This document shows, in pieces, positions 1,089 to 45,680 of a stretch of DNA of 64,000 bases (its first letter is position 1; every line of letters starts with the position of its first letter). Source of the DNA: Bugula neritina (lineage: Eukaryota; Animalia; Bryozoa); NCBI GenBank assembly GCA_964035545.1, contig OZ037769.1:11004633-11068632 (forward strand). Reading direction: 5' to 3'. The notes beneath the pieces are model-generated. The model was not told the origin of the DNA. It saw only the letters and a program-made list of their open reading frames with translations, and made no database searches. Both the position numbers and the translations under genes were made by a program.

Positions 1089-1110
1089 ATGATGCAATGT
1101 TACATGGCAG

Positions 1111-8551: not shown

Positions 8552-8600
<49 letters not shown>

Positions 8601-11028: not shown

Positions 11029-11079
<51 letters not shown>

Positions 11080-13323: not shown

Positions 13324-13653
13324 CACAACTCTTCAAACAACATGCATTGTAAATACAGAACATAAAAGAATAACATTGGAGGTCTATGTGACATTTATAT
13401 AACGGTTATGAAGTTGATTATATATTCAAGAACATGTTAATACAAGCTTTGAGAAAACAGCCTTGCTATGAATTTGCTTGTAATTATATGCTGTGTTGAA
13501 AAGTTCGAAGGCAAGTTTATGAAAATCAATTAAAAGGCAATACATTTATTCTCAACCTTTACAAGTTCTCTAAAGTACGTTATATTGAAGGCTGCCTAAC
13601 TGCAATGCCTGGGGTCAACTGTCACAAGTAGTTTGTAAACTTGAAATAATACG

Positions 13654-18500: not shown

Positions 18501-19898
18501 TCAGCGAGCATTCGAACTGCCTGAAGAGGGCCATCTGATGATGGCCTGATTTCATCCAACACAACTCCATATTTCCTTTGCCCCAGGTATGCTCTATACA
18601 TCAACACGTCTTTCAACGTTCTTGCATCATCACCACTCGGCTGCATTCAAAGCTTAGCATCATTAAATTGTAATATAACTTAATAAATCAAATGCAAAAA
18701 ACAGCTAAATTTAATACTAAGGAACATCAAAGTTCTACAAGTCATCTAACTAAAATCACATCAATTAGGCTAAATTAACTTCACACATTTAAGTTTAAGT
18801 TTAAACATTTAATGAGAATTGTAGAATAGTTGAATAGTATATGTATGAGTTGAGTTAATGTAAAACATTACACCATTTCAAGATAAAAAAAGATCAAATT
18901 AAATCAGTGGTATAAGAATAATGTGATCTTTGCTTGAATAACTGATGCAAACTAATAACTTAAAATCAGTAAGAAATAAAGATTCCTTATTCTTTCTAGT
19001 TTAAACGTAAACTATGAATAGGAAAATAAAATGCATCATGTAAGGAGAAAGTGGTATAAAACAAGAAGAGTTTTGCTAAAATATTTGTTAAAGTAAATTT
19101 GAGCATTGAAATTATGCTGTTTGTCTGTTAAAAATTTAAAACCTGAAAGTTAGTTATTAAATAAGTAAAATTTCAGTTTTGAACTTGAAATCAAAGGTGT
19201 CATTGTATACTATATAATATAGTAATAATTTTAATAATAATAGTAATAGCAATACTTATACTTAATTTTACTATAATACTAATACCTATAGCTATTGATT
19301 ATTGAAACAAATCTAACTTGTTTAAAACACACTAAAGCCACGTAAGCTTATAGGTCTACCACTATTAGTATTAGCATTCCTATCAGTGTTGCTACTAGTG
19401 GCTATTTATATCACTGGCACTATCAGAGTATCACTATGTCTATAATCTTTACTCAGTCTACAGTAATAGTCGGAATGACAACAATAATGACTCCTTCATT
19501 GATCCTCATCAATTGTGATTGATTATAATTTATAACTATTATAATTAAATCAATTTTGACTAGAACTAGAAGATTGAGATTTTCATTCCATTGAGTTGGA
19601 TCACTCATTTACTCAGTATCAGCCTTCATCCTCAGGTTTAAGAGTCATTGTCCATGACTCACAGTGACGACAGAATGAGGTCACAGAGTCAGACTCAGGC
19701 TGACAAATTTTTAAACTTTGATCCCATTCATTTTCAATTTCATTGATTTAATTCTGATTTCATCGACTTTGAAGAGCTCAAAAACTATGTTAGTAAACAA
19801 AAACTTACCTTGGCTTTTTGAGCTTCATTTATGCAATGCTGGAAATTGCCTGTATAAAGAGCATTTTTAACTTCAAATAGTTCATCTACTTCTGCCAT
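15566..19898 (-). CDS. COPE: Coatomer subunit epsilon (8 exons)
   Basis: Exons 19809-19898, 18477-18640, 18169-18321, 17894-17947, 17647-17728, 17361-17516, 16356-16424, 15566-15694; [76 protein letters not shown]. Confidence 0.95.
16551..17225. repeat. Minisatellite, 19-bp unit GATATCTCTAGACTATACA
   Basis: Tandem array in a COPE intron. Confidence 0.95.
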
Positions 19899-20434
19899 AA
19901 CGTCTAGTAATACTAACTTTATAATAATAAATTTAATAGCTACAGGAGTACTAGTTAGTCTTGCTTTGTTGTATCCGGTTTGTTTTTAGCCTGTAAATCT
20001 TGAACAAATTAATTTTGAATCGTTCCAGTGTCAAGGTTTTCTAACGGAGCTGATCTATTCTTTGGCATGAGTAAGAAAACTCCTCATAGATAATCTTCAG
20101 AAAGTCAAATATATGAAATTGTATTATAATATTATTTTGGCTTTGTATCGAAAATATTATTTTGTATTTTATTTTATTTAGTAGAGTTATCTTCTCTCAC
20201 AGGCTTGAATACTCAAAGCACTTTCATGATTGTAAAATAGTTGATGATTGCATAATATAATATGTGTACAATTCTCTAAACTACTGTTGAGTATTGGTAG
20301 CCTTATATAGTCTATTCCATTAAACATATTGATGAAGATGAGATAATCACAATGAAGGAAGTGCATGTCTGTGATTTTACATTATATATACTATTTGGGT
20401 ATTTGAACTATCATGACAGTGAGTGAAAAAATAT

Positions 20435-29153: not shown

Positions 29154-32100
29154 TTGCGTTCATTCCTGCATTAATTTTTGTTGCGTCAAGAAATAAAACA
29201 CTGCAAGCTAACTGCGATTTCGAGTCAGATTTAAGCACTGCCCATCTTTTGTATATTTTCTTACCTCCAATAACTGGCATTCTGCCATTATCTATTGAGG
29301 ACACAACTCCTGGGAGACCACACAAGGAGCCAGCTAGTATCTCTATAGAGGAAGTGTGGGGGGCCATGACGAGTATGGGCGCCTCTTTACTAGTAACCTG
29401 CTTGCCCTTGACTCTTTGTATAAAAAATCCACTCACATAGCCAGTAAGTAAAGCTAATCGTACTGTTAAATCTCTGAAAATGCTGAAATAATAAATTATA
29501 ATATTTAGCTGCATAAAGGACTAGGCGTATTATCAAAACTAATTGAATTTTGCTAGAAAATTTGCATTTGAGCATCAACTCGCTAAGAGCCACAGTAACC
29601 ATTAAAAATGCAAATGCTCACGTTCAAGCATTAACAAGGCATAAACAAGACGAGTTCTGTTTAGGTATTAACTCTGCCAGATAAATTATACCTAAAAGTT
29701 TGGTGAGAGTTTTGTAATAAAATATATTGAGTGCAAGTTTTTTTTGTTTTTGCGTAATCAATTTTAATGCAGTTCATAATAACTTATTAAAAGCTCAATA
29801 CTGGTTTACTGGCACTATCATGGGTGATCGATTACTTGTGTCTTGCAGCAAATTTTCTCACCATAATCATACAAAAGTTGTTCGTTAAAATTTTATGGAG
29901 GCAATTTCAATCTTCAAAGTATGTGCTGTTTAATGCAAAACAAGCTAAACTAGGCAAAACCAATCGCCAAATGTCCCACCACTTTTTTTCTATAAACATT
30001 GAGGGCATAAAACATTGTCAAGTAGGCAGAGCTTAAATTCTCGTGCTCTGAGTAGACTAATATGCTAACTGTATGATACAAAGAGCTCAAAACTTGATTC
30101 GAGAAAAGATCAACTGAAATAAAATTGAAATTAAGGAATTTCTTTAGACATTGGGTATAATGCATAACATCATATACTCTATATTTTTACTTTTAATAAA
30201 AAGTGAAAACCACCTTATTACAGGATTCACAAACAACATGATTTTTGCACATTGACAGGATAAAATATCAGTAGTAGTAGGTGGATGGTCCTAGGACAAC
30301 CCTTCCCCCGTCGAGTCTTCGACTCTCCGGTGTCAGGGATTGTCCCAGGACGCATCCACCTACTACTACTCTATTAATGTTTTTATTAAGTTTTAAAAAT
30401 TGTACGTTTTAGGACAGTTTATTATTTTATTGTCCTAGAATTGTATGTTTTTAGGTTGGTTTATTATTTTATTACTGTTAATTTAGAATAAAAAAAAAAA
30501 GCAATTACTCATTAATACTATTATAATAAAGTTTAAAATATACGTAATGAAAAGGTAATGCCGTATCAGTTATTTCGCTAGCGGGAGTATCAGTTAAAAT
30601 TACGTCATTGGGTTTATGACTCGGATAATCACTCGAAAGAGCTATTGTAAATGAAAAATTATTATTAGCGTTAATAATTTTATTAATATTTATTTTACTA
30701 TACGGAACATTATGTTCAGCACCGCTTATATCATAAAATAAATTTTCTTTAGATTCATCAAATGGGTTTACGCTATTACGAATATGTAAACCTATTTTTT
30801 TATCAGTCCAATATAACGCTTTTGTTTTATTTTTAGTATAATGTTCACCATAAAATTGTATTAACGCGTGCGTTATTTTTATAGGTTTATTTACTAAATA
30901 ATCGTTAATTAAATCTACCGTAAAACTATTAATATTTTCGTAATAATAAAATTTATTATTATTTATAATACCCGAAATAAACGCTTTATTAGTCGTTATA
31001 TCGACTTTATTAAATTTATAAATATTCATTTATAATTATAATAAAGTTTTATTAATACGTAATGAAAAGGTAATGCCGCATTGGTTATTTCACTAGCGGG
31101 AGTATCGGTTAAAATAACATTACTAGGTTTATGACTAGGATAAGTTTTTGATAATATTATTGATAGTGAAAAGTTTTTATTAGCTTCAATAATTTTATTA
31201 ACGTTTATTTCGCTAAACGGAACATTATGTTCAGCACCGCTTATATCATAAGAAAAAAAAATATTTTCAGCGACGTCACTATACTTAAATGTGTTAGCGC
31301 TATTTCTAATTTCTAAGTTTAATCGTTTATCAGTCCAATAAAGTTCTTTAGTATTATGAGCTTGTTCACCGTAAAAATGTACTAATATATTTGTTATTTC
31401 AATCGGTTCATCGACTAAAAAATCTCTAATTAATATTCCTTCAAAATAATCATCTCTAATATTTTTTATAAAATATGACGGAATTATAATATTCGTAATA
31501 TACGGTTTTTCATTTATTATATTGGCTTTAGCCGAATTTCCAAAAATATATACCGAATTCATTTATAGTTATAATAAAGTTTTACTAATACGTAATGAAA
31601 AGGTAATGCCGCATCAGTTATTTCGCTAGCGGGAGTGTCGATTAAAATTACGTCACTAGGTTTATGACTAGGATAATTTTTTGATAATGACATTGTTAAT
31701 TTAAAGTTTTTATTAGCTTTAATAATTTTATTAGCGTTTATTTCGCTAAACGGAAGATTGTGTTCATTACCGCTTATATTATAAAAAGTATTTTCATTGG
31801 ATGGATTAAATAATTCAGTACTATTTCTAATATGTAAGCCTATTCGCTTATCAGTCCAATAAAGTTTTTTAGTATTATGAGCTTGCTCACCGTAAAATTG
31901 TATTAATATATCCGTTATTTCAATTGGTTCATCGACTAAAAAATCTTTAATTAATGTAGTAGTAAATCCTCCTAAATAATACGTAAATTCTGACGGAATT
32001 ATAATATTCGTAATATACGGTTGTTCATTTATTATATTAGCTGAATTTCCAAAAATATATACCGAAGTCATTTATATAAGTAATTTATTTATAATTAATT

Positions 32101-35100
32101 GAGGTGACTCGCGTTTAAACATTTCTTTAAGCCAGTATAAACACAAGTGTCCGCATATAACCGTACCGAATTTTTGTACTCGTTCCGTGTTATAAAATAT
32201 AGGCGGTTTTAAATATTTCATTATTTCTAGCGGAGGATGTAATCCGAAACTATCGAAATAATATTTTTTATTTCCGTTTTTATACCAAGCTACCCAATGA
32301 GTACCGTTACCCATTAAATCGTCTAAATTTAATATACCACACTCTTTTTTACGCGGCTTATCGGGTAAATCGTTTCTTGAGAATACTCCTCTAAAAAATG
32401 GTATTTTTAATTTTTTAATCGCAAACTCTAATTCAATATTTGAGAGAGCTTTATTTTGTAATTTTATATTTTTTATTTTAATCATTTATATAACCGTAAG
32501 GGACTGTCATTATACCGTTTTTTAATATAATTCTTTTATCGTCTTCGGATGATAATGCCACTTTATTTATAGTCTCGGCATACATCGTATGCTTATGACT
32601 TCTTAACACGTTCATCGTTCTAAATTGATTTCGCCGCGTTAATAAACACTCTTTATAATCATCAAATGTTATGCGATTATCACGAGTTGTTTTATTAATA
32701 CCCTTACATTTTTTCTCTTCTATATCATCCATTTTGTAAGAATATAATTTAGCTCTTAGGCCTATAAATTCTGTAATTTGCTTGCCACCGGCTTCATCCT
32801 TAAACTTTCCTATTACTTTTTTATTTTTACCGGTTGGTATACCCGATTTATGATTTTTTGGATAATTACTCGTGTCAAATTTATTTTCGATATCCGGTAA
32901 TATATCTTTATAAAAATCTTTAGTTTGCACGTGATACATTAAGCTATCTGTATCCGTAAACAGTAACTGAGCTTTATTACCGTATTTAAGTCTAATATAC
33001 TCGTAATGAAAGTCGTACATTAGAGTTTTACTAATGTCTAATATAGCCGCACCTAAATATATAGGCTTGTCAAATTTTAATTTTACTACATTCATATGAA
33101 CGGCTATTAAATTTTTAGAAAATATAGTGAAGTTTTTAAAGTTAGGCTGATTAGTTAATTTTTTAGCTTCGCTTTCGCTAGTAATTAACTTAATGTTAAC
33201 TCTATTTCGTATATTTTCCATCGTTTTACCAAACACGGAATTATTCATTAGCTTAAAAAAATCTTTTTCAAAATCACTCTTAGCTAAAGTTCTTAGTTCG
33301 GTATTTAATTTTATATATTTTTCTAACTTATTCGATTCATTAAAGGTTATACCTCTATGAATCTTCGTTAATTTTAAGCCGTACATAAGACATTGTTCCA
33401 ACGCTTTATAGTGTATAACGTAATTCTTTTTATTATTTAAGTTTGGCACCAACTTTTCTACTTTGTTAATTATTATTCTTTCGGGGCAAAACGGATAATC
33501 TTTATGCGTGTCGTGTAACTTCTTAGAATATTCTAAATCTACTTCCAAAAAGCTAGGCGGAAAGTTTAAACTTTTTTCTAACTTACGGCATTCTCTTTCG
33601 CTTAGCCACTTAAAGTTACTTACGGGTAAATTTTTAGACATGGCCCATCCATATAAATTATTAGCATCTAAATACGTAATATAACTACTAGGCTCTTTGG
33701 GATTATAATTAGTCATATATTCATTATTAGCTCGAGCGTATCTATGACTAATCATACTTACTCCCCCTCTAATTCCTTTTTCAAAGAAGAGTAATTGCTC
33801 AATGTTAGTAATTGGATCCAACTCTAATTCCGTAGTTTTGAGCATAGCGTCCCAACTTAAACCCGGTGCCGTATAGTACCAAGCCGGATCTAATTTATAA
33901 TATTCGAGGCATACGTCTCTAAAGTTTTCAAAAACGTCAGCTAATTGAATTACGTCGACTTCCATATACAAGTCGTGATATTCTCTAAACGTTTTCATAT
34001 TAAACTCTCGCCAAACGTTTTGAGCGTGTTCGTAATCCTCATCGCTTATATTACTTTCAGTTAAACTCGAGTAAAACTTTTCTTTTGGTGGTAAAGACGT
34101 TTCATCCAACACGCTTACGTTATTGAAATAGTCGTACGGAAATACTCCTTTTCTTAACAATAAGCTTAATTTATTTTCATTATTAAAATGTTGTTGTAAG
34201 TATTTAAAGTCATTACGTTTTAAATTCGCTACTAAGCTCGCTAAACTAGAACTCATAAATTTATACGAGTCTAAAAAGCGAATTTCACGCGTAACTTTAA
34301 CTTTTTTACCTTCATTATTAGTAAATTCGTCTACTATTATTTTTTCATTAAACGATATATATTTTTCTTCAGTGTTGGGTATACACGAAATTTCACCGCT
34401 TAAATTTTTAACGAATAAGTGAGCGTCGTAACCCGACAAGTTATGAATAAATACCGGATAAAATTTTGGAATTTTATAATTTAAATTACAATTATTATGA
34501 GCCGCTCCTCTATAGTTTCCGGTTAAGTGGCAGTGATCTCTCACTCTGTCATTACCCAATTTTTCTTCGCATATATAACAATTTTCGGCTAATTCGAAAG
34601 ACTTTTGTTCGCTAGCCGAAATTTCCATTGATTTAGGAAACTTATGTTTTTTATACAAGTTTTTAATGTCGAGTTCTAATAATCTCATAAATAGTTCACC
34701 AATATTTTCGTCTTCGTATTGCTTAGTATAACTTCTGTACTCGCACTCGCCGGTAACGCTCACGATATAATATCCGAAACCCGACGGTTCGTGTTGCTGA
34801 TATTGGTTAGTATAGCTTTTCTGAAAATTAGGCTGACAACTTTGTATAGGCTTAGTAAAACATTCAAAGTCCGCGTATACCACAAACGGTACTCTCATAC
34901 TACGGCAATGGTGACTAGACTGAAATTTTATTTTATTTTCTATTTTCGGAAAGACCGTAGTTACGCCTTCGTTCGTTAAACACCAATCTTGATGCTTTTT
35001 TAAAGATTCGTTAGATCGAAACGAATTCATACAATTTACGCAAATATGTTTAGCGCTAACGCGTTTATTTATTTGCGAACCGAGTAATTTATTTAAATTT

Positions 35101-38100
35101 TTAATATAAGCGTAATGACTCTTTTTGTCGTCGCTTATATAAAATAAATTTATAATTTTACCCTGATTTTTAGTTTTTTTCCATAAATTTATTGTTTTAC
35201 CGTCCCACGTAAATACATTAATTCCAAAATCGGAATTAACCTCTTCAAAAGCGTCAATAGATTTTTTAGTAGCGGGAAATTCAACGCCTTCCCACGAAAA
35301 TTTATTAACGTATTCTTTATAATTATTAATTCTTTCGGGATGGTTTTTAGGCGTATAAACACTCATTAAAATGGCCCACATAAAGCACTTATTATCCTCA
35401 TTTTTAGGATTTATTACGGCTTTTTTTAATTTAATTTCTTTCGGAAGATCAATCCACGATGATCCGTTAAGAGGTTGATATTTATTAATATTAATTTCCA
35501 TTTTTTTAATGGCTTTAAACATCCAGCTACTTCCTTTCGCGTTTAACGAAGCAAAATTTTCTTTTATACGTTCAATTATTTCATCGTATATTTCATTAAT
35601 ATTTGTAGACTCTAATATAGTTTCAATATTTGATGTAAATGGCATAATTTCTACAATAGTTTCTCCGGTACGTACATTAATTTTTTCCATTTCGCAATAC
35701 ATAAATATTTTAACTTTTATAGTAGGTTTCAATAATTCTATTACATTTAATTTTACTAGTTTACTAAACGAATCTATATCGTATTTGGGTAAACCTTTAA
35801 TTTCATAAGTTTGAAACCAACCATTAGCGGCTTGTTCTTTAAGTTTAGGCTGATTATATAAAGCCATAATTTTATCCTTAATTGGATTTATAATTTTTGT
35901 AATTGGCTTTATAACCCATTTTTTTATATTACGCGTAGTTTGCGTAAATATTTCTCGCATAATTTTTTTTACGGGTGTAGGTATTAACGGGGCTTGTCCT
36001 ATATTCGGAACGGGTTCGTCCATAGGCGATAATAGCCGTATAAGTTCGGCTTTTTTTAATCGAGAATATCGTTTCAATCCTCTTTCTTTAGCTAAAGCTT
36101 TTAAAGCTTTTACGGTAATTTTTGTATTGAACTCCATTTATATAATATATTCTTTAATAGTAATATCAATTTTTAATATTATTACTTATGTAAAATAAGT
36201 AATAATACTGGGCTGTTATACGTCTCTATTTTCTTCTTTTAGTTTATAAGCTTCGCGTTTTAAAATACTTTTTATATAAAAATATTTATTAATGTTAGGA
36301 ATTTGTTTTCTCGTTCTAAAATTAATTTCTTTAAGAGATATATTATTAATTACTGGTATATATAAATATTCGAGTAACGGTGTATATTTTTTTTGTTCGG
36401 TTTTAGCTATTAGTTTATCGAGTAATTCAACGGTAAGATCCATATTATAAAATAATAAAATAATAAAAATCATTTTTTTATATAAATGGATTTTCGACGA
36501 GAAAAATTAGAACTTTTAAACGATGAAATTATTAAATTAGAAAACGAATACGAGCAAAAACTTAATCGTTTTAATTGGTTATCAAAATCGTTAAAAATAA
36601 TTTCGGGATTATGCGGTACAACGAATTTAATATGCGGTGTCATTATTACGGCATTAATAAACGCTAACGTTACTAAACAAACGTTATTACCATTATCTAT
36701 AATAGTAAGTATAATGAGCGTAATTACTACTTCTATTTCTTCTCAAGATACTAAATTAATTAAATCTACGTTAATGTATTTAGATATATATACGTTTATA
36801 AAAGATTCAAAATTAGAAATTAATTCTATGTTATCAAAATTTTTAAGCGACTCTTATATAGACGAACAGGAGTATGACGCTATAACCGAAAAATATAAAA
36901 ATATTAATAGCGTAATAGTGAATAAAAAAAGCGATATAATAGTCGCTCGTAACAACGTTTGTTAATTACTTGCAAAATGCAATTAATTAAAAAAGGAAGT
37001 TCAATATAAAAATTATCCGTATATTTATATATGTTTTCTTTAACTATCATTTCGTCTTTTTTCTATTTCGTCTTCGGCGTATTTTAGTTTAGTAAAGAAT
37101 GACGGTATTCTAGCCGCCGCGTAATTCATTAAACCTACATTAAGTTCTTGAATTATTTCTTTAGTTTTGTAAATAGTTTTTATTTTTAATTTTCCATCAT
37201 TTTCTTTATAAATAATTTCTTTTTTATTATTATAAGTAATTTCTTCGAGTAATCCGCACTCATTAGTTGAATTATTCATTTCGTCTAATATATTAAAATT
37301 TTTATATATAATTCTTTCTTTAATATCACCGCCTTCGTACACTCGTTTTTCGTATTCGGAAGTTTTATATATTGTTTCGGTAATCGGGGTGCCGTCGAGG
37401 CTTTTATAAGTAATTACTGTTGACATTTATATACGTTTTCTTTAACTATAACAGCATACCTAAAAGAGGAATATTTTTAAACGGACTATTCGGACCTAAA
37501 ATTAAACCTTCGCCTTTTATATAGCTAGAACCTTGTTTTAAATATAAACCGTTACCTTTCATTAAATTAGACGACGCGACTGGTTTTAAAGTAATAGAAC
37601 CGTTTAAATTAGGTTCTACGGAACATACGCATCCGCCTTTTTTCAAATAAAGACCTTTACCTTTAATAGCTCTTTCGACTCCCGCGCTAGCGGCTCCTGA
37701 AAGTACACCCGGTATAATAGTTTTTAATAGCGTAGGTATTACTCTCGTAGCTATACCTAATAGAGCTCCTAAAAATCCTCCGCTCATTGACGCGTTAGTT
37801 TTTACTAATGACGGAGACATTTCGAGCGTTATATTTTTTTTATTCGCGTTTAACGCTTTTAAAATATTATCATTTTGCGTTTTCGTAACGACTAGTTTAT
37901 CATTTCCGCTTTCGAGAGGCAATTTAATAACGCAACCCTTACCGCTTCTATAAGCGTTCATTATTTTTTGTTTTTGCGCCTGCGGCACGTTTCCTATAAT
38001 TTCGCAGTAACCCATTTATATAATACATTAAACTTCTCTTAAATGAAATCTTATCGAGAGTTGTTCACCGCTAAGATCTAATAAATTACCTTTTTGATCG

Positions 38101-41100
38101 GTTACCGTAACGGTTAACGTCTTAATATATTTAACGTGAACGGGTAAGTATATTAAATTATGAGGTTTTTCTATTATTTTATATCCCGGACTAACGCTCG
38201 GAAAAAATGAATAAATAACGGGTTTATAAGTACCATCGATATAACTTCCATTAATACAATCAACTTGTACGTGTATAGCGTTTATATTTAAAATATTTAC
38301 TATGTTCGTAGCTTCGATATAAGGTTGATTATATATCGCCGCGTCAAAACCTAAAACGTCTCTTAGAGAATTTTCAACGTTAAAATCTATTCGATAATTT
38401 GGTTTTAATTTAAGTATAATTCTAAAAGTTACTTTATTAGCTTGTAAAGTAATACCGTTTCTATTACCCCCCTCTTTTACTATTTCGTCTTGAATAGTTT
38501 CTTCTAGTTGATCTAATTCGTACACTCCGACTGGTAACGAAACTAAATGCCACGTAGTACCACCGTCTTTAGACCATCTATAGGAATTTCTATCGGTACT
38601 AATGTTTGGAAAAGAATAAAACGTATCCAAACTAATAAGACACATTTCGTATTTTTTATTTTTATTTAATTCTATAGGCGGATTAAGTTGAGTAATTATT
38701 CTCGTTTTAGTATCGGTAACTCCTATAGTCATCGTTTGTTTAGAGGCCGTATTATCAGCAATTTCTCTTAATAATTTGTTTTCCATTTATATAACTTTTA
38801 AATTGTTTCCATCGGAACTGAGAGACATAGTTTTATCCGATAGAATTAGCGCGTAAGCTTGAGTATCAGCCGGCACGTTTTGACTAAACTGAACTCTTAA
38901 TTGAATATCGGCTACGCTACTTTTAAGAGCTTCGCTTTGCTTACTAACGTCTATTACGAACAAAGCGTAAAGATCTTTATATTCCGAAGGTAATACGTTT
39001 GAATAAGCGATTAGCTCGTTTATACCGTAATATTCTCCGCAAAACTTAGAAGCGTCTCCGTACACTCTACTAAACTTCATTTTAGCGAAATCTATATCGT
39101 AATCAACTTCGGGATACCGCTCACTGTTTAGCATCGCGTATATACTTTTAACGTTAACGTGATCGAATACGGCCGGATTAGTCGTTTGACTTTCAGTCTT
39201 ATCCGTTTGAAAACCTACAATAATATATTTAGGTTTTTCGGTATCTCCTCTAGAACCCAAACGCCACGTAAAGTTAGTAGTTTGCGGCACCGCGATACTA
39301 TCACACCATCTAGATCTATAAATTAGGGGTAGTTGCGCCTTACTCTCTATAATTTTATAGAGTTTATGCTTCATTTCAAAACTAGGCGTTACGTGAGGCA
39401 TCCACCACGATACTTTATTCAACGTTATTTTTCCCGCGTCTACGCCGTTAGCTCTATAAATAGCGTTATCGTTAGTATCGCGTACTAGCGTTAGTTGATG
39501 TTTTATACCGTATAATACTTTTTCGTAATCATCGGCGAATCCGAACAAATGTCTGAGATCCACTTTAATACTAAAAGTACCTTTAGGATCCGGCTTTTGT
39601 ATAATATAAATTTGACGCGCGTTAAAACCTAAATTAGCGGCGGCAGCGGCTGCGGTAGTATCTTTTGACCACAACTGATTAAGACCTCTCGACTTACCGT
39701 AGTCGTCGGGATAAGTTAATAAACCCATCATGGTCGAAGCGTGTCCGGGATTATTTATATATTCCAAGTCGTGTCCGTCGAGTTGATATCTAATACTTTT
39801 AAACAAATAAGCCATACCGTTATTCGTTAACGTTACTAAGTCGGCGTCGGCGTAAGCGGTTCCGTCATTTTTCGTTAAACGTCCTTCGATAATTAAATAA
39901 CTTTTACTCGGCTGAACGTACAAATCTTGTTGATTAATAACTATTCTAATTTCACTGGGAGTATTTAAATTCGTTCCCGTTACGGGTTCGTATTCGTGTA
40001 CCTGATCGCGCTCTACGCTCGTATCGAGTACAATTTTTTGTGTAATGTTCAGAGAATCCATTTATTATAGTAAAATAATTTCTTAATAAGCTATAGCTTG
40101 TCCGCTTCCTTCTAAAATATTACTTATATTATTATTGTTTAATATATTTTTAGTTTGATTAAGCTTTTGTAGTATAGCTTGACTTTTAGCGTTTAACTTT
40201 TTTTGTCTTCTTTTTTTAATCGCGTTAACAATTTTTTCACCGGCCGCGGTACCCGCTTTAGCTATAGCCTTTTTACCTAATTCTCTTACGCTGGAATTAC
40301 TAGCTATTTTAGTTACTACATTCCTAATGGTATCAAATATTCCACCACCGGCGTAGTGTTTTTGTAATCGTTGTCTTTTATCGTAAACGTACATTTATTA
40401 TACGAGAATACTTTTATAATAGTCACGAGTAATAATTTTCATTCTAAGTAATTCGTCTAATATAGACACAATTTCGTTTCGTACTCCCGTATTTCCGGCT
40501 TTAGCGCTAGAAATTAAAAGTTCGAGTCGTTCTACTAAAGCGTTAGGATCAGACGATAAATATACTACTCCATCACCGACTTGCCTTTTAGCTTTTTTAC
40601 TATCGGCGAGTTTCGCTCTCTGAGGATATAATTGTTCCCAAATAGGTCTAACAATATTTTTCCATTTTTCACTATTTTTATCTATGGGACCGTGTTTACT
40701 TTGATATATAGCGCCGCTATTATCGAGTATATTAGCGTAATTCGCTAAATCATTATCATCGTATCCTATAGGCGTTTTACGCGTTAAAAGACTTAAAAGT
40801 CCTCTAGTCGCCGGATATTCTTCGTTTTCAAAAATTATTTTACCATCGTTAAAACTTATAGGTTTCGTACCAATAACGTGTCTATTACCATCCCACTTTA
40901 CGTTATAAGCGCCGGGTTCTAAGCCAGCTAAAGCGTTTTGCGTATATTCGTCTAAATTTATAACTCCATCCGTTATAGCCGGTTGAACATTATAATTGGG
41001 TAATGTAAGCAATTGTTTTAACGCGTCAGTCGTTTGAGCTTGCGAAGTCGTTACGGGTTCAAAATATTTTTCTTGAGCTATAGCGGCATTTAATTCTCGC

Positions 41101-44100
41101 TCGCGTTCTCGTTTAAAATTTTCTTTTAATTTATTCTTTCGAGAAATAAAATCTTGTACGGTTTTATCTCTTTTTATAGGGTCGTGAATCTTTAAGTAAC
41201 TCATTTATTATATATTAATTTGTGTCTACTTTTTATGGACACAAACACATTTGTGTCTACTTTTTATGGACACAAACACATTTGTGTCCACTTTTGTGTC
41301 TACTTTTTATGGACACAAATACATTTGTGTCTACTTTTTATGGACACAAACACATTTGTGTCTACTTTTTATGGACACAAATGTGTTTGTGTCCACTTTT
41401 GTGTCTAGTGTCCACATTTGTGTCTAGTGTTCACTATAATCGTTCTAAAACGTTTAAATTTACCCAAGAGTTTTGAGAATCGGGATAACCTAACCATTTT
41501 ACTAAAGCCTTTTTACCTTTCTTTTTAATTACGCGTTCTATTCTATACATTTCTTGACTCGTCTTTTGTAATTCCTGTTCGTAAAAAGATCCTTGAATTT
41601 CTTCTCCACCCGAGTCGGTTAATTTATAAGTAGTCGGATTAGTATATAATATTTTACTTATAGTAAACACTTCCTCCGTCCATCTAACGGTATAACCTTT
41701 TTCAAACGTTCGTTTCTTACGAGGTATACGTACTCTATCACCTATAGCGAATTTAGGTTTAAAAGGCGCTGGTAAGTTTGAATATAATTTCACGCGTACT
41801 TTATTTTCATTAGAAGGATTACTAGCTTCAATCGGTGTCATTCCAATAGACGAATGTTTAGTCTCGTTATACCGTTTTACTAAATCTTTTAGTACGTCTA
41901 TATATTTATAAGTATTATTAGCCGAAAAATATTTAAACATTCGCTCTTTCATTGTTCTATTCCACCTCTCTACTACGCTAGACTTTTCTTCATTTTCCGT
42001 AGAATATAAGTCTATTAAAGACTTTACGTCTTTGTTATAAAATTCTTTTCCCTTGTCAACCCATAAATGTTGTGGCTTACGACGAGTTAAAATCGTTTTT
42101 AAAGCTAAAGCAACGGCTTTTCCGGTTTTATTTTTTAAAGGTATTATCCAACCGTATTTTGAAAACACGTCTATTACCGTTAGTAAATATTTATAACCGT
42201 TATTAAATTTAGCGAATTCAGTCATATCAACCAAGTCAGCCGCCCAAATATTATCGATACCCGATACCCAAACTCGTCTTTTACGAAATTTTTTTTGTAC
42301 GGGTTTATGTAGTTCTTCGGCTAACTCGTTCGTCCATCCCCATCCTAAGCGTTTTTTCGCTCCTATTATTGCCGAGGCGAAACGACTGTGTCGCTGTTCA
42401 GCGGGTGTAGGATTAGGTATAGCTTTCAATTCGTCTAGCATATTTTTATCGCATATTTCGTTTCTAGTCTTAGTATCTTTATTAAGCGCGTAACATACGT
42501 CGTGTCTCATGGCTATAGCGTCGTCTCGATCTACCGGTTTACTCCATTCTTTAGGAGTCGTGTCGTCATTAAGACGTTTATTTAATTTAGTACCCGGTCC
42601 TAAAAAATTATGGCCTGGATAATGCAATTCGAAGGGTAAATTATTTATTAAATTATTAGCTAAACCCGACCCAACGAATGTAGTTTTTTTACATCCGCAT
42701 TGACCGCAATTACCGTAACCCATTAGTCTATTATTTTTACTTACTCTCTTTTCGTAATTAAGAGTTTTCGTTTTAGTTTTACACTTACAACAATACATTT
42801 ATTATAATAAATGGAAAAAGAAAATCTTTCGTGGAAAAACGAAATTAATCGTAATAATAATCCTTTACTCCCTAAAAGCATAAGAGGTCTTATCGTTGGA
42901 AAGTCTGGATGCGGTAAAACTACGTTACTTTGTAACTTACTATTACAACCTAATTGGCTCGATTACGATAAACTTATGATTTACGGTAAAAGTCTTTCTC
43001 AACCCGAATATATAAATATGAGGAAGGCTTTCGAACTTAAATTAACTAAAGAAGAAATTTTAAATTTTTTTAAAAATAGTGACGCGATAATAAATTCGGG
43101 TATAAACGTAAATCGTGTTTTAAAAAATAGTAGGGGTAACGGTAATATAGACGCCGAATTTATAGAATCTAGTGACGACGTTTATGATCCTAGCGAATTA
43201 GACGTTAATAATAAAAATTTAATAATATTCGATGATTTAATGTTGGAAAAACAAAAAACTTGCGAAAGTTATTACGTAAGAGGACGACACAATAACGTCG
43301 ATTGTTTTTATTTATCGCAAAATTATTTTAAGCTGCCTAGAAATACTATTCGAGAAAACGCTAATTTTATTTGCTTATTTCCTCAAGACGGAAAAAATTT
43401 AAATCATATATATCAAGATCACGTAACCGGAGATTTAACGTTAAACGAATTTAAAAACTTTTGTTATAAAGGATGGCAAAAACCTCACGGCTTTATTACT
43501 TTAGATCTTTCTTCCTCAAAAAATAATGGGAGATATAGACACGGGTTAGACGAATTTTATATACCGTAATAAATGAGTGTTTATAAATTCGGAGGAAGCG
43601 AAAAAACAAAAATAGATACAAAAAAATTCGTTTTAATAAACGGTAGTAGTACTCTTACGGGTACATTAGATATGGGTGAAAATAAAATATCTAGAGTTAT
43701 TAATCCGGCTGACAATCAAGACGCGGCTACAAAAAAATACGTTGATGATACGAGTATGCCTAAAATACAAAACCCTATTAATCAGTTAACTATATCAACT
43801 GATGATGGACGCGTTATAGATAGTAATTTAAAAGTTGATGATGTTGTTACAAAAACTAATGTATTTAATTACGCAGTACCTCTTATACGAGACCCGAGTG
43901 AAAAATTAACCGTATCAACTAATACGGGTAATATTGTAGATAGTAGCTTAAGCGTTAGCGATATTGTTACGACTAGTAATATAAATAATTTCGCTATAAA
44001 TAAAATACAACCAGCGAATGAAAAATTAACCGTTTCGACTACTTCGGGTAATGTTGCGGATAGTAGTTTAAGCGTTAGCGATATTATTACGACTAGTAAT

Positions 44101-45680
44101 ATAAATAATTTCGCTATGAATAAAATACAACCAATAATCGGAAGTAAATTATTAATGCTTTCGAGTGATGGTAATATTGTAGAAACGAATATAAATATTT
44201 CGGATCTTATTACAATAAATAATATATCGGATTACGCTATTCCTAAATTACAGGGAGCAGTTGGTAATAAATTAATTATATCAACGAGCGATGGTAATAT
44301 AATAGAATCTACAGAATCTCAACCCACATTTCCAAGTTATAACGTTTAAACACTAAATTATTATATTCTTAACGTATAATAATTTATTATCTTATTAATA
44401 GTAACGAGTGAATGCATTCTGAAATAAAAGTTAATGTTTGTCCTAAAAACGTACAATTCTGAAACAAAACTCTATAAAATATTTTTTTATTCTAAATTAA
44501 CAGTAATAAAATAATAAACTATCCTAGAACGTACAATTCTGGGACAGTAAACTCAATAAAACAATAAACTGTCCTAAAACGTACAATTTCTAAAACTTAA
44601 TAAAAACATTAATAGAGTAGTAGTAGGTGGATGCGTCCTAGGACAATCCCTGACACCGGAGAGTCGAAGACTCGACGGGGGAAGGGTTGTCCTAGGACCA
44701 TCCACCTACTACTACTAATATCGCTATTATAAGTTTTATACATACAGCCGCCAGCCGGCCAGAGGCGTGTCTGGCTCCAAGGGAAGACCGAAGACTGCGA
44801 TACGAGCAGCAAGAGAAGTCAATGCAAAGCAGGAGAAAATAAGAGCCAATCGAATAGGTGCTATAGTCACTGCCATTATATAAAACTACAATATTTGATA
44901 TATAAATGTAAGTCTTTAATTATCTTTTCAAGTACTGCATGCATGAAAATTTGTTTTGGAAATTTCTTATACTATAATTATAGTCTATAAGTGTTTATAC
45001 TATATCATGACATAGTTTGTAGAAACAAACCTATAAAGGTATAATTAACATAGCATTCACATATATGGCAAAACTCATTGTGTAAACTGAAATGCAATTT
45101 TGCAACTACTCTGAACAGATTTGTAAATGTATTAAGCCACTTTTCTAGACAAGAAGATGAAAGTCAAATAAAAATACAAATCATTCAAGTGATTGAGCAG
45201 TCATAGCATTTAAGAAAGATTAAGGCTTATTTTGTTAGAACGAATAATTTTCGTAAAAGCATGTTCTCAGAATTAGGGTGTTTTACGAAGCATGTGAGAT
45301 TGCTGTCTGCAAATTAAAAGAGAACTCTGGTATTACAGTACTTAATTTTACAAAAATTACAAAGCTTAGAAAGAAGGTGTTACAAAAGAAAATGCCCAAA
45401 GATTTAAAATTTAAAATTAATTTTTCAACAGCAGAATATGTCTTTCTAAAAATGTTTCAAACAAATTATTATCATTAAAACACCAAAACCAGTTTTAATC
45501 AAACAGCCAAAGATACAAAAACACAAAATGAATGTAAACACTCACAACTATTCTATCCCAAAACGTTGTGTAGAGAGTATATCTAAAAGGGTGAGTATTG
45601 AGCGAGCTGTCTGACACAGAGTTATTATGTAATCCATTGCTGTCTCTTTTGTAATCCAAGTCTTCTGCTGCCTCGGCCAT
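25558..45680 (-). CDS. LPCAT-like lysophospholipid acyltransferase paralog A (~352 aa, 7 exons; Polinton in intron 2)
   Basis: Exons 45546-45680, 44746-44885, 29265-29482, 28278-28451, 26796-26889, 26063-26200, 25558-25717; TIAPIR, EAPILVMAPHTSSIE, WPQIIILPEG, FKTGAFLPGVPVQP, PVYDPSEAEKENAELYARNVR. Confidence 0.88.
27275..27487 (+). mobile_element. tRNA-derived SINE copy, full length
   Basis: GGGAGCAGCCATGGTCTAGGG...GGTTCGAGCCC...TATAAACTTGCGTGAGT. Confidence 0.85.
27853..28063 (+). mobile_element. tRNA-derived SINE copy with (TGAG)n tail
   Basis: Same family; followed by the second copy of a 19-bp direct repeat. Confidence 0.85.
29068..29155. repeat. (TG)n microsatellite
   Basis: Directly visible. 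Confidence 0.97.
30270..30496 (+). repeat. Left TIR of the Polinton; outer 101 bp form a hairpin
   Basis: Reverse complement of 44482-44716; outer 101 bp differ at one base, inner part has substitutions and a ~9-bp indel. Confidence 0.95.
30505..31029 (-). CDS. Polinton orphan paralog 3 (174 aa)
   Basis: ORF shares LYWTDK, YDISGAEHNVP, YPSHKP, DTPASEIT, LPFHYV blocks with its two neighbours. Confidence 0.85.
   Translation of the reverse strand: MNIYKFNKVDITTNKAFISGIINNNKFYYYENINSFTVDLINDYLVNKPIKITHALIQFYGEHYTKNKTKALYWTDKKIGLHIRNSVNPFDESKENLFYDISGAEHNVPYSKININKIINANNNFSFTIALSSDYPSHKPNDVILTDTPASEITDTALPFHYVYFKLYYNSINE
31026..31562 (-). CDS. Polinton orphan paralog 2 (178 aa)
   Basis: Same conserved blocks; ATGA overlaps with both neighbours. 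Confidence 0.85.
   Translation of the reverse strand: MNSVYIFGNSAKANIINEKPYITNIIIPSYFIKNIRDDYFEGILIRDFLVDEPIEITNILVHFYGEQAHNTKELYWTDKRLNLEIRNSANTFKYSDVAENIFFSYDISGAEHNVPFSEINVNKIIEANKNFSLSIILSKTYPSHKPSNVILTDTPASEITNAALPFHYVLIKLYYNYK
31559..32071 (-). CDS. Polinton orphan paralog 1 (170 aa)
   Basis: Same conserved blocks; ATG immediately follows the protease stop. Confidence 0.85.
   Translation of the reverse strand: MTSVYIFGNSANIINEQPYITNIIIPSEFTYYLGGFTTTLIKDFLVDEPIEITDILIQFYGEQAHNTKKLYWTDKRIGLHIRNSTELFNPSNENTFYNISGNEHNLPFSEINANKIIKANKNFKLTMSLSKNYPSHKPSDVILIDTPASEITDAALPFHYVLVKLYYNYK
32072..32485 (-). CDS. Adenain-like cysteine maturation protease
   Basis: GTHWVA (His), YFDSFG (Asp), VQ...ICGHLC (Gln, Cys) motifs. 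Confidence 0.93.
   Translation of the reverse strand: MIKIKNIKLQNKALSNIELEFAIKKLKIPFFRGVFSRNDLPDKPRKKECGILNLDDLMGNGTHWVAWYKNGNKKYYFDSFGLHPPLEIMKYLKPPIFYNTERVQKFGTVICGHLCLYWLKEMFKRESPQLIINKLLI
32478..36137 (-). CDS. Protein-primed family B DNA polymerase (1219 aa)
   Basis: Exo motifs YADFE, HNLSGYD, YMEVD; pol motifs YLDANNLYGWAM, KLMNNSVFGK, FTDTDSL; also Rho_N-like N-terminus, OTU-like segment, Zn finger and endonuclease VII-like insert. Confidence 0.97.
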   Translation of the reverse strand: MEFNTKITVKALKALAKERGLKRYSRLKKAELIRLLSPMDEPVPNIGQAPLIPTPVKKIMREIFTQTTRNIKKWVIKPITKIINPIKDKIMALYNQPKLKEQAANGWFQTYEIKGLPKYDIDSFSKLVKLNVIELLKPTIKVKIFMYCEMEKINVRTGETIVEIMPFTSNIETILESTNINEIYDEIIERIKENFASLNAKGSSWMFKAIKKMEININKYQPLNGSSWIDLPKEIKLKKAVINPKNEDNKCFMWAILMSVYTPKNHPERINNYKEYVNKFSWEGVEFPATKKSIDAFEEVNSDFGINVFTWDGKTINLWKKTKNQGKIINLFYISDDKKSHYAYIKNLNKLLGSQINKRVSAKHICVNCMNSFRSNESLKKHQDWCLTNEGVTTVFPKIENKIKFQSSHHCRSMRVPFVVYADFECFTKPIQSCQPNFQKSYTNQYQQHEPSGFGYYIVSVTGECEYRSYTKQYEDENIGELFMRLLELDIKNLYKKHKFPKSMEISASEQKSFELAENCYICEEKLGNDRVRDHCHLTGNYRGAAHNNCNLNYKIPKFYPVFIHNLSGYDAHLFVKNLSGEISCIPNTEEKYISFNEKIIVDEFTNNEGKKVKVTREIRFLDSYKFMSSSLASLVANLKRNDFKYLQQHFNNENKLSLLLRKGVFPYDYFNNVSVLDETSLPPKEKFYSSLTESNISDEDYEHAQNVWREFNMKTFREYHDLYMEVDVIQLADVFENFRDVCLEYYKLDPAWYYTAPGLSWDAMLKTTELELDPITNIEQLLFFEKGIRGGVSMISHRYARANNEYMTNYNPKEPSSYITYLDANNLYGWAMSKNLPVSNFKWLSERECRKLEKSLNFPPSFLEVDLEYSKKLHDTHKDYPFCPERIIINKVEKLVPNLNNKKNYVIHYKALEQCLMYGLKLTKIHRGITFNESNKLEKYIKLNTELRTLAKSDFEKDFFKLMNNSVFGKTMENIRNRVNIKLITSESEAKKLTNQPNFKNFTIFSKNLIAVHMNVVKLKFDKPIYLGAAILDISKTLMYDFHYEYIRLKYGNKAQLLFTDTDSLMYHVQTKDFYKDILPDIENKFDTSNYPKNHKSGIPTGKNKKVIGKFKDEAGGKQITEFIGLRAKLYSYKMDDIEEKKCKGINKTTRDNRITFDDYKECLLTRRNQFRTMNVLRSHKHTMYAETINKVALSSEDDKRIILKNGIMTVPYGYIND
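36216..36473 (-). CDS. Polinton hypothetical protein (85 aa, or 75 aa from the ATG at 36443)
   Basis: ORF fills a gap in the compact element; start uncertain. Confidence 0.55.
   Translation of the reverse strand: MIFIILLFYNMDLTVELLDKLIAKTEQKKYTPLLEYLYIPVINNISLKEINFRTRKQIPNINKYFYIKSILKREAYKLKEENRDV
36486..36965 (+). CDS. Polinton putative membrane protein (coiled coil + two hydrophobic helices)
   Basis: 159-aa ORF with ATAAATG start; hydrophobic LICGVIITALI and LLPLSIIVSIMSVIT. Confidence 0.75.
   Translation: MDFRREKLELLNDEIIKLENEYEQKLNRFNWLSKSLKIISGLCGTTNLICGVIITALINANVTKQTLLPLSIIVSIMSVITTSISSQDTKLIKSTLMYLDIYTFIKDSKLEINSMLSKFLSDSYIDEQEYDAITEKYKNINSVIVNKKSDIIVARNNVC
37040..37426 (-). CDS. 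Polinton hypothetical protein (128 aa)
   Basis: ORF with ATAAATG start and repeated (T/I)-I-(Y/T)-(K/Y)-like strands. Confidence 0.7.
   Translation of the reverse strand: MSTVITYKSLDGTPITETIYKTSEYEKRVYEGGDIKERIIYKNFNILDEMNNSTNECGLLEEITYNNKKEIIYKENDGKLKIKTIYKTKEIIQELNVGLMNYAAARIPSFFTKLKYAEDEIEKRRNDS
37446..38015 (-). CDS. Putative virion core protein, adenovirus pX-like, with several adenain sites
   Basis: MSGG/FLGALLGIA resembles the pX C-terminal region; IKGKG, MKGNG, IKGEG fit (M/I/L)XGX/G. Confidence 0.75.
   Translation of the reverse strand: MGYCEIIGNVPQAQKQKIMNAYRSGKGCVIKLPLESGNDKLVVTKTQNDNILKALNANKKNITLEMSPSLVKTNASMSGGFLGALLGIATRVIPTLLKTIIPGVLSGAASAGVERAIKGKGLYLKKGGCVCSVEPNLNGSITLKPVASSNLMKGNGLYLKQGSSYIKGEGLILGPNSPFKNIPLLGMLL
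38028..38786 (-). CDS. Minor capsid (penton) protein
   Basis: Size, position next to MCP and Polinton mCP-type motifs LNPPIEL, FPNIS, LPVGVYE, VLGF, CINGSY, LIYLPV, DQKGNLLDLSGE. Confidence 0.85.
   Translation of the reverse strand: MENKLLREIADNTASKQTMTIGVTDTKTRIITQLNPPIELNKNKKYEMCLISLDTFYSFPNISTDRNSYRWSKDGGTTWHLVSLPVGVYELDQLEETIQDEIVKEGGNRNGITLQANKVTFRIILKLKPNYRIDFNVENSLRDVLGFDAAIYNQPYIEATNIVNILNINAIHVQVDCINGSYIDGTYKPVIYSFFPSVSPGYKIIEKPHNLIYLPVHVKYIKTLTVTVTDQKGNLLDLSGEQLSIRFHLREV
38787..40061 (-). CDS. Major capsid protein (double jelly-roll)
   Basis: 424 aa; EIRIVINQQDLYVQPSKSYL, YLFKSIRYQL, LFGFADDYEK, EKPKYIIVGFQ, LNSERYP, LFVIDVSKQ typical of Polinton MCP. Confidence 0.9.
   Translation of the reverse strand: MDSLNITQKIVLDTSVERDQVHEYEPVTGTNLNTPSEIRIVINQQDLYVQPSKSYLIIEGRLTKNDGTAYADADLVTLTNNGMAYLFKSIRYQLDGHDLEYINNPGHASTMMGLLTYPDDYGKSRGLNQLWSKDTTAAAAAANLGFNARQIYIIQKPDPKGTFSIKVDLRHLFGFADDYEKVLYGIKHQLTLVRDTNDNAIYRANGVDAGKITLNKVSWWMPHVTPSFEMKHKLYKIIESKAQLPLIYRSRWCDSIAVPQTTNFTWRLGSRGDTEKPKYIIVGFQTDKTESQTTNPAVFDHVNVKSIYAMLNSERYPEVDYDIDFAKMKFSRVYGDASKFCGEYYGINELIAYSNVLPSEYKDLYALFVIDVSKQSEALKSSVADIQLRVQFSQNVPADTQAYALILSDKTMSLSSDGNNLKVI
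40083..40394 (-). CDS. Small basic putative core/membrane-active protein
   Basis: YAGGG followed by amphipathic IFDTIRNVVTKIAS; C-terminal LEGSG fits the adenain consensus. Confidence 0.7.
   Translation of the reverse strand: MYVYDKRQRLQKHYAGGGIFDTIRNVVTKIASNSSVRELGKKAIAKAGTAAGEKIVNAIKKRRQKKLNAKSQAILQKLNQTKNILNNNNISNILEGSGQAIAY
40398..41204 (-). CDS. Polinton hypothetical protein (268 aa), probably conserved
   Basis: N-terminal coiled coil; C-terminal YLSSDPNALVERLELL..AGNTGVRNEIVSILDEL resembles a recurring Polinton core-gene domain (recalled, not searched). Confidence 0.7.
   Translation of the reverse strand: MSYLKIHDPIKRDKTVQDFISRKNKLKENFKRERERELNAAIAQEKYFEPVTTSQAQTTDALKQLLTLPNYNVQPAITDGVINLDEYTQNALAGLEPGAYNVKWDGNRHVIGTKPISFNDGKIIFENEEYPATRGLLSLLTRKTPIGYDDNDLANYANILDNSGAIYQSKHGPIDKNSEKWKNIVRPIWEQLYPQRAKLADSKKAKRQVGDGVVYLSSDPNALVERLELLISSAKAGNTGVRNEIVSILDELLRMKIITRDYYKSILV
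41219..41433. repeat. Array of 31-bp palindromic units TTTGTGTCTACTTTTTATGGACACAAACACA inside the Polinton
   Basis: Five units plus partial copies, intergenic. Confidence 0.9.
41434..42798 (-). CDS. Retroviral-like DDE integrase fused to an N-terminal Zn ribbon and parvovirus-type PLA2, with C-terminal chromodomain
   Basis: CCKC...CGQC; HNFLGPGT...DAIAMRHDVCY; WAADLVD, WVDKGKEF, VVERWNRT; YRIERVIKK...ALVKWLGYPDSQNSWV. Confidence 0.95.
   Translation of the reverse strand: MYCCKCKTKTKTLNYEKRVSKNNRLMGYGNCGQCGCKKTTFVGSGLANNLINNLPFELHYPGHNFLGPGTKLNKRLNDDTTPKEWSKPVDRDDAIAMRHDVCYALNKDTKTRNEICDKNMLDELKAIPNPTPAEQRHSRFASAIIGAKKRLGWGWTNELAEELHKPVQKKFRKRRVWVSGIDNIWAADLVDMTEFAKFNNGYKYLLTVIDVFSKYGWIIPLKNKTGKAVALALKTILTRRKPQHLWVDKGKEFYNKDVKSLIDLYSTENEEKSSVVERWNRTMKERMFKYFSANNTYKYIDVLKDLVKRYNETKHSSIGMTPIEASNPSNENKVRVKLYSNLPAPFKPKFAIGDRVRIPRKKRTFEKGYTVRWTEEVFTISKILYTNPTTYKLTDSGGEEIQGSFYEQELQKTSQEMYRIERVIKKKGKKALVKWLGYPDSQNSWVNLNVLERL
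42811..43569 (+). CDS. A32/FtsK-like DNA packaging ATPase
   Basis: Walker A GKSGCGKT, Walker B IIFDD, RGRHNN, YLSQNYFKLP..IREN. Confidence 0.95.
   Translation: MEKENLSWKNEINRNNNPLLPKSIRGLIVGKSGCGKTTLLCNLLLQPNWLDYDKLMIYGKSLSQPEYINMRKAFELKLTKEEILNFFKNSDAIINSGINVNRVLKNSRGNGNIDAEFIESSDDVYDPSELDVNNKNLIIFDDLMLEKQKTCESYYVRGRHNNVDCFYLSQNYFKLPRNTIRENANFICLFPQDGKNLNHIYQDHVTGDLTLNEFKNFCYKGWQKPHGFITLDLSSSKNNGRYRHGLDEFYIP
43573..44349 (+). CDS. Fibre-shaft-like repeat protein (258 aa)
   Basis: LDMGENKI...DNQDAATKKYVD neck-like motif followed by ~5 repeats of 40-41 aa (KLTVSTxxGNIxDSSLSVSDI). Confidence 0.75.
   Translation: MSVYKFGGSEKTKIDTKKFVLINGSSTLTGTLDMGENKISRVINPADNQDAATKKYVDDTSMPKIQNPINQLTISTDDGRVIDSNLKVDDVVTKTNVFNYAVPLIRDPSEKLTVSTNTGNIVDSSLSVSDIVTTSNINNFAINKIQPANEKLTVSTTSGNVADSSLSVSDIITTSNINNFAMNKIQPIIGSKLLMLSSDGNIVETNINISDLITINNISDYAIPKLQGAVGNKLIISTSDGNIIESTESQPTFPSYNV
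44482..44716 (-). repeat. Right TIR of the Polinton
   Basis: Inverted copy of 30270-30496; hairpin at 44616-44716. Confidence 0.95.

Follow-up and report, generated by a model that had tools for sequence, protein, structure and literature searches.

An intact integrated element of the Polinton/Maverick type (an adintovirus; 14,447 bp at 30270-44716, with the ends AGTAGTAGT / ACTACTACT) lies in the 64,000-nucleotide stretch of the Bugula neritina genome analysed here (assembly GCA_964035545.1, contig OZ037769.1, positions 11,004,633 to 11,068,632 of the forward strand; hereafter the window, numbered from its first letter). The heptamer ATAAATG, in which the ATG is the start codon, opens 15 of the 16 genes of this element, and the evidence supports its being a dedicated start element, neither a consequence of stop-start packing nor a host start context. 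The unit of a T, an A-run and ATG could well be a transcription initiator of each single gene, read by the RNA polymerase of a large DNA virus in a virophage-like way, a reading that we hold tentatively. As a Polinton the element is unremarkable; what stands out is the start signal, which bears on how animal Polintons without an RNA polymerase get transcribed and switched on.

The heptamer at the start codons

The gene set comprised 16 open reading frames (ORFs) of at least 60 aa, none nested in another, between 30505 and 44349. ATAA stands directly before the ATG at all 15 positions named in the original prediction (Table 1), and the sole exception that it listed, ORF 36473, has six A's in place of ATAA (it is 85 aa long and without a homologue in the 80 related loci). 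ATAA precedes 15 of 16 starts vs 3 of 296 non-start ATGs in the element (Fisher p 9e-22). The enrichment against an AT-matched background, a check that had been proposed, is borne out (2 of 30 ATGs in the element and, among flank ATGs preceded by four A/T bases, 17 of 380; binomial p 9e-20 for the latter), and a conservative count, 10 of 11 at p = 1/16, still gives 9e-12. In the whole window ATAAATG is present in 35 copies vs 32.6 +/- 5.6 expected, so that the enrichment is positional and not global. The motif is also wider than first noted: positions -5 to -1 read W-A-T-A-A in 15 of 15 motif starts, with TATAAATG at nine starts and AATAAATG at six, and a TATA is found within -8 of the motif T in 14 of the 15 (0 of 500 rotations). 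A depletion of TAAATG inside genes (4 vs 15) was considered as evidence and dropped, because TAAAT is undepleted and the relatives show no depletion; the apparent shortage is due to a general TpG/CpA deficit (0.64-0.70).

Close packing of genes does not explain the motif. Seven of the 15 motif starts overlap the upstream stop or sit within 3 nt of it, and three come after spacers of 12-21 nt. At the other five (polymerase, 41204, integrase, ATPase and 36486) either the nearest 75 nt are free of a same-strand stop or there is no gene upstream. At two junctions a second TAA follows the stop (stop-TAA-ATG). The claim that the motif persists independently of upstream stops holds at the Y-K-stop tails (31562, 31029), at the I-N-D-stop tail (32485) and at the divergent genes. 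Both divergent start pairs have their ATGs 12 bp apart, which leaves no space for ordinary leaders, and the integrase and the ATPase share one palindrome (42796-42813); in 11 related loci the ATGs of these two genes are 20-48 bp apart (20-30 in 9 of the 11).

The motif starts do not follow the host start context either. T occupies -3 in 15 of the 16 window starts (15 of 15 motif starts), whereas all 47 eukaryotes covered in PMC2241899 have in common an A or G at this position. The window also contains three putative host starts, a small sample, with GTT, ACA and GTG before their ATG, i.e., a purine at -3 in three of three. Such a Kozak-type purine is absent from the window motif starts and present in other relatives (see below), so a context shared with host genes, the objection foreseen in the original prediction, fails in the window. 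The TATA words of the window lie no more than 8 nt from the ATG motif, which is not the layout of an RNA polymerase II (Pol II) TATA box. Two further candidate signals were rejected: a poly(A) signal (AATAAA overlaps only 6 of the 15 starts, two of these without an upstream gene) and spliced-leader trans-splicing (an AG acceptor within 12 nt at only 1 of the 15 starts).

Distribution of the signal among relatives

Relatives were collected by capsid alignment, which gave the best 80 of 323 metagenome loci, plus 2 from genome bins; the 80 loci form 22 clusters at 78% identity, one of them with 48 loci. Among 157 orthologous starts (143 unique), T-A(2-5)-ATG was present in 107 of the 143 vs 4.1% of 18,310 other ATGs. 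T-A-ATG was seen in only 3 of the unique starts, and the minimum run is thus three A's, counting that of the ATG. In the large cluster 54 of 70 starts read exactly TAA-ATG, and each of the eight scored genes has it (2.6% in the background). Of the 73 starts in the other clusters, 2 have TAA-ATG, 50 have T-A(3-6)-ATG and 68 have A at -3. Exact TAAATG is characteristic of two lineages only, most relatives having a T plus 3-6 A's, and these counts indicate that the signal of the family is a T and an A-run ending in ATG, with the run length set by lineage. In the capsid tree the window lineage does not group as sister to the large cluster, a placement of moderate support (84/91; 55 rows, midpoint root, 42 of the 48 large-cluster loci omitted, no formal test of the clade). 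Viral contigs, scanned three times at the protein level, yielded no relative. In three loci of the large cluster (L013, L025 and L051) TpA is down to 0.41-0.55 of expectation, yet TAA is retained before the starts.

Comparison with known promoter types

For the region upstream of the initiator we used 99 starts of proteins with N-termini alignable between clusters (15 families from 22 clusters, the large cluster excluded). Their A+T content goes from 0.81-0.93 (-26 to -16) through 0.69-0.78 (-15 to -9) to 0.84-0.94 (-8 to -1). A TAAA falls within the final 13 bases of 79 of the 99 starts vs 570 of 5709 (AT-matched, 62 of 69 vs 202 of 497). TAAAAA is placed 18-24 nt before the motif T (13 of 43; 0 of 500 rotations). 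After removal of the capsid and the divergent genes AAAA is still positioned in 12 of 25 (1 of 500 rotations). The vaccinia intermediate promoter consists of an AT-rich core at -26 to -13, a 12-bp spacer and TAAA (PMC12917281), and the core-spacer-initiator profile of the relatives appears, by base composition and motif spacing, to match it better than a Pol II TATA box, for which the optimal distance to the start is 30-31 bp (PMC1779604); in 15 of the 99 starts a TATAAA begins between -30 and -25 relative to the ATG.

Vaccinia late genes have TAAAT(G/A) at the start site (PMC5294985), and this trait, overlapping the start codon, is present at 15 of the 16 window starts. The poxvirus late core is a T-containing stretch of about 20 bp, 5-7 bp before TAAAT; in the window the T fraction is 0.51 at -15 to -11, and among its 15 start sequences only TATA/TTATA is positioned. 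The likeness to vaccinia late and intermediate promoters thus consists of the TAAATG fused to the start codon and of the core-spacer-TAAA arrangement in relatives. Unlike vaccinia, the element has neither an RNA polymerase nor intermediate or late factors, is integrated in a nuclear genome, uses one signal for replication and capsid genes alike and has no positioned core in its window copy. Late genes of African swine fever virus have a TA(+1)TA initiator (PMC7163114), which makes the TATA beside the motif a second possible start point. Another comparable system is that of the yeast cytoplasmic linear plasmids pGKL1/2, which are likewise protein-primed linear elements with T-A-run initiators near the ATG (TAAAN, with slippage and a 5' poly(A); PMC6211774), although pGKL2 has genes for an RNA polymerase and a capping enzyme of its own, both of which are absent from the window element.

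Transcription genes and RNA in host libraries

The statement in the original prediction that the element has no RNA polymerase agrees with its gene content: no ORF of that size exists besides the DNA polymerase, the integrase and the capsid. No transcription factor was detected in the element proteins by Pfam, PHROGs and one fold prediction. ORF 31562 was considered as a hidden transcription factor and rejected; its predicted fold is a beta-sandwich (best Z 7.9) without a clear match.

Part of the element is present in thirteen sequencing runs of four studies, none recorded as RNA. A coatomer-epsilon-like (COPE-like) host gene is spliced in three of these runs (X1, X3 and X4) and unspliced in X10. 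Element depth was 0-20 in X3 vs about 390 on COPE exons, 0-26 in X4 vs about 180, and 64-1366 in X1 vs about 1140. In the DNA run X10 the summed element depth was 1862-8241 vs about 100 on the host gene, from which the element family is multicopy and diverse in the host (the likeness cut-offs behind these depths differed, being 85 and 90, and depth summed over contigs measures abundance poorly). Concerning introns, none of 15 contig joints, among those listed of 56, has intron ends.

Proposed mechanism and alternative explanations

If the T-A-run-ATG is a transcription initiator, the message would begin at the first A after the T, inside the A-run. The vaccinia polymerase slips on three template T's and thereby adds a poly(A) leader (PMC6211774), and slippage of this kind on the three template T's of the motif would give a 5' poly(A) leader here. 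Such a leader would convert the unfavourable T at -3 to an A and would make the TAA-ATG and TAAAA-ATG lineages equivalent as RNA; slippage would explain the sharp three-A minimum, the harmless T at -3 and the unity of the lineages. Integrated copies would be mostly quiet and would be read, like those of virophages, in the late phase of a co-infecting large DNA virus. That this helper is specifically a poxvirus we consider quite improbable, because initiators of this kind are also known from other large viruses (with weak examples in the viral contigs L083 and L103, described below). Of the original prediction, the dedicated start element has stood, and the designation "poxvirus-late" turned out too narrow, since exact TAAATG is characteristic of two lineages only.

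Several observations weigh against this reading. RNA of the family occurs in the spliced libraries X1, X3 and X4, so it is not silent; this RNA may represent intronic read-through, host Pol II transcription or a hidden infection, and the assembled contigs carry no 5' end information. All of the motifs are short and AT-only, three full ATAAATG copies lie off starts (Table 1), and TAAAT is not avoided inside genes (75 vs 76.7 expected). Upstream, the window element has no positioned core among its 15 start sequences, and of 25 core TAAA in relatives, 11 coincide with the stop codon of the upstream gene. The A at -3 in most starts outside the TAA-ATG lineages fits an A-rich host context; T before the A-run (38 of 40 vs 68 of 88 in the AT-matched background, p 0.012) falls to p 0.059 when the starts are also AT-matched; and one clade (L058, L068 and L080) lacks the signal at 6 of 6 starts. 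The start site, the poly(A) leader and the helper are all inferred beyond the pattern itself.

The alternative that survives best, though we think it somewhat unlikely, is that host Pol II reads compact promoters of the single genes, in which the AT-rich block opens the DNA and transcription starts at the T-A step, near-leaderless and helper-free. It accords with the integration of the element in a nuclear gene, with family RNA in spliced host libraries of three studies and no known helper, with the TATAAA at -30 to -25 in 15 of 99 related starts, and with adintovirus transcripts in cavefish tissues (PMC8502044). Yet a TATA at this distance puts the start at or beyond the ATG (PMC1779604). The nine TATAAATG copies with a TATA consensus would place it about 25 nt inside the gene, and the protein N-termini align from the first ATG. 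Leaders below about 5 nt translate poorly in animals, which also counts against host Pol II.

An unlikely explanation, in our view, is that the motif is a translation signal on longer host messages, either by UAA-AUG stop-start re-initiation or as an A-rich context on polycistronic RNA. The 7 of 15 motif starts at upstream stops would fit re-initiation, the A found at -3 in the other lineages (68 of 73 starts) fits the AAAAAAAUG pattern (PMC2241899), and RNA contigs span gene junctions (X4 record 29, X3 record 17), though a contig need not represent one transcript. Against this, the motif is just as exact where there is no upstream ribosome (integrase, ATPase, 36486, 41204 and polymerase), two lineages have a fixed T at -3, and the upstream core-spacer profile of the relatives is left unexplained. 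That the motif is a functionless by-product of compaction and A+T bias, spread between genes by junction recombination, is very improbable. In its favour, the spacers are short and AT-rich, three of the 15 genes are paralogous, ORF 37426 has a near-identical 24-nt repeat with a start-type tract at both ends (37020-37060, 37420-37460), and sister contigs diverge from the window at 43569, exactly where a motif begins, but the AT-matched background (2 of 30 and 17 of 380 vs 15 of 16) speaks against it, and the motif is common to unrelated genes and to a second family.

A wide group of animal Polintons may be animal virophages, with initiators of the intermediate/late type of large DNA viruses, those of each lineage (TAA-ATG, TAAAA-ATG or none) being tuned to a different helper or to the host, which we put forward with some doubt. 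The start signature would then foretell which integrated elements need a helper, and of what kind, and would steer the search for it; the many copies integrated in animal genomes would in that case parasitise large viruses after lying dormant, and might also serve as a heritable defence against viruses.

Relation to known systems

Promoter motifs shared with helpers are known from virophages and from one Polinton-like virus (PMC8547959, 10.1101/2022.07.28.501842): mavirus and the EMALEs share TCTA with CroV, and the Polinton-like Gezel-14T shares AAAATTGA with PgV. The window element resembles them as a small integrating double-stranded DNA element without RNA polymerase that has one short upstream motif of large-virus type, whereas those systems have a known helper and mostly protist hosts, and the window element is from an animal. 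Polinton-like viruses occur in entomopoxvirus occlusion bodies (PMC11296320, in which the word promoter has 0 occurrences), and these are other lineages than the window element. Activation of vertebrate Mavericks by giant viruses was proposed by Barreat and Katzourakis, without a sequence signal (PMC8097293).

The element agrees with adintoviruses (PMC8502044) in its terminal repeats, 6-bp duplication, rve integrase with chromodomain, A32 ATPase and capsid, and also in a candidate adenain-like protease and a large presumed PolB. It differs in that an invariant start heptamer is not described in the accessible portion of that paper and in that the PLA2-like domain of the window element is in frame with the integrase. 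The word promoter has 0 occurrences in the accessible text of PMC8502044 and PMC11071296 and two, unrelated, in that of PMC8097293. Helper-shared promoters and giant-virus activation are thus already known or proposed; of a start motif in animal Polintons we found no report in the literature searched, a search outside which the supplements (the EMALE motif figure and the adintovirus maps) lay.

We also scanned viral contigs for the 18-bp palindrome of the integrase/ATPase pair, which gave 22 loci, 6 of them labelled as giant-virus bins. Both ATGs open ORFs in only one of the 22 (L103) and one side does so in 7 more; with so few loci having ORFs on both sides, most are chance. In L103, a contig of a giant-virus bin, the identical palindrome forms a divergent start pair at 4001-4018. 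In the unassigned 152-kb viral contig L083 (4016-5866 and neighbours), TAA-ATG opens 6 of the 9 ORFs within the 8 kb viewed.

Element structure and host setting

The terminal repeat arms are 98% identical (as aligned, 30265-30432 / 44554-44721) and are flanked by a target-site duplication of 6 bp, the length typical of the Polinton/Maverick family. Coding density of the element is 93%, with intergenic gaps of -8 to 229 nt. Its integrase has an rve domain (PF00665, E 6e-9), a C-terminal chromodomain (PF00385, E 2.5e-5) and a PLA2-like domain; the double jelly-roll major capsid (PF21738, E 1.6e-57) and the A32/FtsK packaging ATPase (PF04665, E 2e-8) are clear, and the adenain-like protease has a weak PF00770 match (E 0.006) under the cut-off. 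Named capsid homologues, at 56-58%, are one from a scallop and one from a bryozoan. The naming of the putative minor capsid (38786), or penton, follows from gene size and synteny. The 1219-aa ORF we take to be a DNA polymerase B of the protein-primed type, its catalytic motifs having been recognised by eye. No polymerase family in Pfam or PHROGs matched it (no PF03175), which is consistent with the Beta PolB class, and the element is probably a member of that adintovirus class (Starrett et al. 2021, PMC8502044).

Table 1. Start-codon heptamers, boundaries and adjoining host exon in the window.
Feature	Coordinates	Strand	Remark
Left target-site duplication AATATC	30264..30269	+	
Left terminal inverted repeat, 163 nt	30270..30432	+	
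ATAAATG, ORF 31029 (174 aa, paralogue family)	31027..31033	-	within upstream gene's Y-K-stop tail
Non-start ATAAATG inside ORF 31562	31511..31517	-	out of frame
ATAAATG, ORF 31562 (178 aa, predicted beta-sandwich)	31560..31566	-	
Other non-start ATAAATG	32026..32032		in paralogue
ATAAATG, ORF 32071 (170 aa)	32069..32075	-	TAA is the protease stop
ATAAATG, adenain-like protease 32485	32483..32489	-	within polymerase I-N-D-stop tail
ATAAATG, DNA polymerase B 36137 (1219 aa, presumed)	36135..36141	-	previous stop 78 nt away
Divergent pair 36473(-)/36486(+)	36471..36488		ATGs 12 bp apart; ATAAATG on + side only, 36482-36488
ATAAATG, ORF 37426 (128 aa, lineage-specific)	37424..37430	-	previous stop 19 nt away
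ATAAATG, ORF 38015 (189 aa, kept in relatives)	38013..38019	-	previous stop 12 nt away
ATAAATG, putative minor capsid 38786	38784..38790	-	TAA is the major capsid stop
ATAAATG, double jelly-roll major capsid 40061	40059..40065	-	previous stop 21 nt away
ATAAATG, ORF 40394 (103 aa)	40392..40398	-	reads stop-TAA-ATG, one TAA beyond packing need
ATAAATG, ORF 41204 (268 aa)	41202..41208	-	preceded by 229-nt repeat spacer
Other non-start ATAAATG	42063..42069	+	
Two ATAAATG in perfect 18-bp palindrome, integrase 42798(-) and ATPase 42811(+)	42796..42813		12 bp apart
ATAAATG, fibre-like ORF 43573	43569..43575	+	reads stop-TAA-ATG
Right terminal inverted repeat, 163 nt	44554..44716	-	
Right target-site duplication AATATC	44717..44722	+	
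Host LPCAT-like exon adjoining right end	44745..44879	-	outside element

The PLA2-like domain and the integrase form a single ORF (41434-42798) in the window, and in four relatives (L001, L009, L018 and L081) they are in different frames, the overlap containing an A-run in each; this may be a programmed ribosomal frameshift. Between the integrase and ORF 41204 lies an array of 31-bp repeats with internal palindromes (41205-41433), the length of which differs between sister contigs. Three tandem paralogues occupy 30505-32071, and two of them end in K-L-Y-Y-N-Y-K-stop, which encodes the start signal of the next gene; the homologues P0129, P0136, P0138 and P0143 also end in Y-K, and P0136 and P0138 begin like the fibre-like ORF 43573. 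ORF 37426 has only 8 close homologues, all unnamed, and the repeats at its two ends look like a cassette insertion.

Exons of a host gene are found on both sides of the element (a putative first exon from 45680 and the next recognisable exon near 29472), and the element therefore sits in a host intron. We presume this gene to be LPCAT-like from sequence likeness; a database search with the exon adjoining the right end gave no match. Other host genes were seen by eye: a phosphoserine-phosphatase-like gene at 1040-3640 (+), a calbindin-like gene at 6284-13330 (-), the coatomer-epsilon-like gene at 15569-19900 (-), of which the splicing was confirmed in the runs named above, and at least three tandem LPCAT-like paralogues at 25561-64000 (-). 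In dinucleotide composition the element (CpG 2.1 and TpG 0.59 of expectation) differs from the host flanks (CpG 0.37-0.41, TpG 1.2), which indicates that it has not been moulded by host methylation decay; in ten related loci CpG is 0.6-1.1 of expectation.

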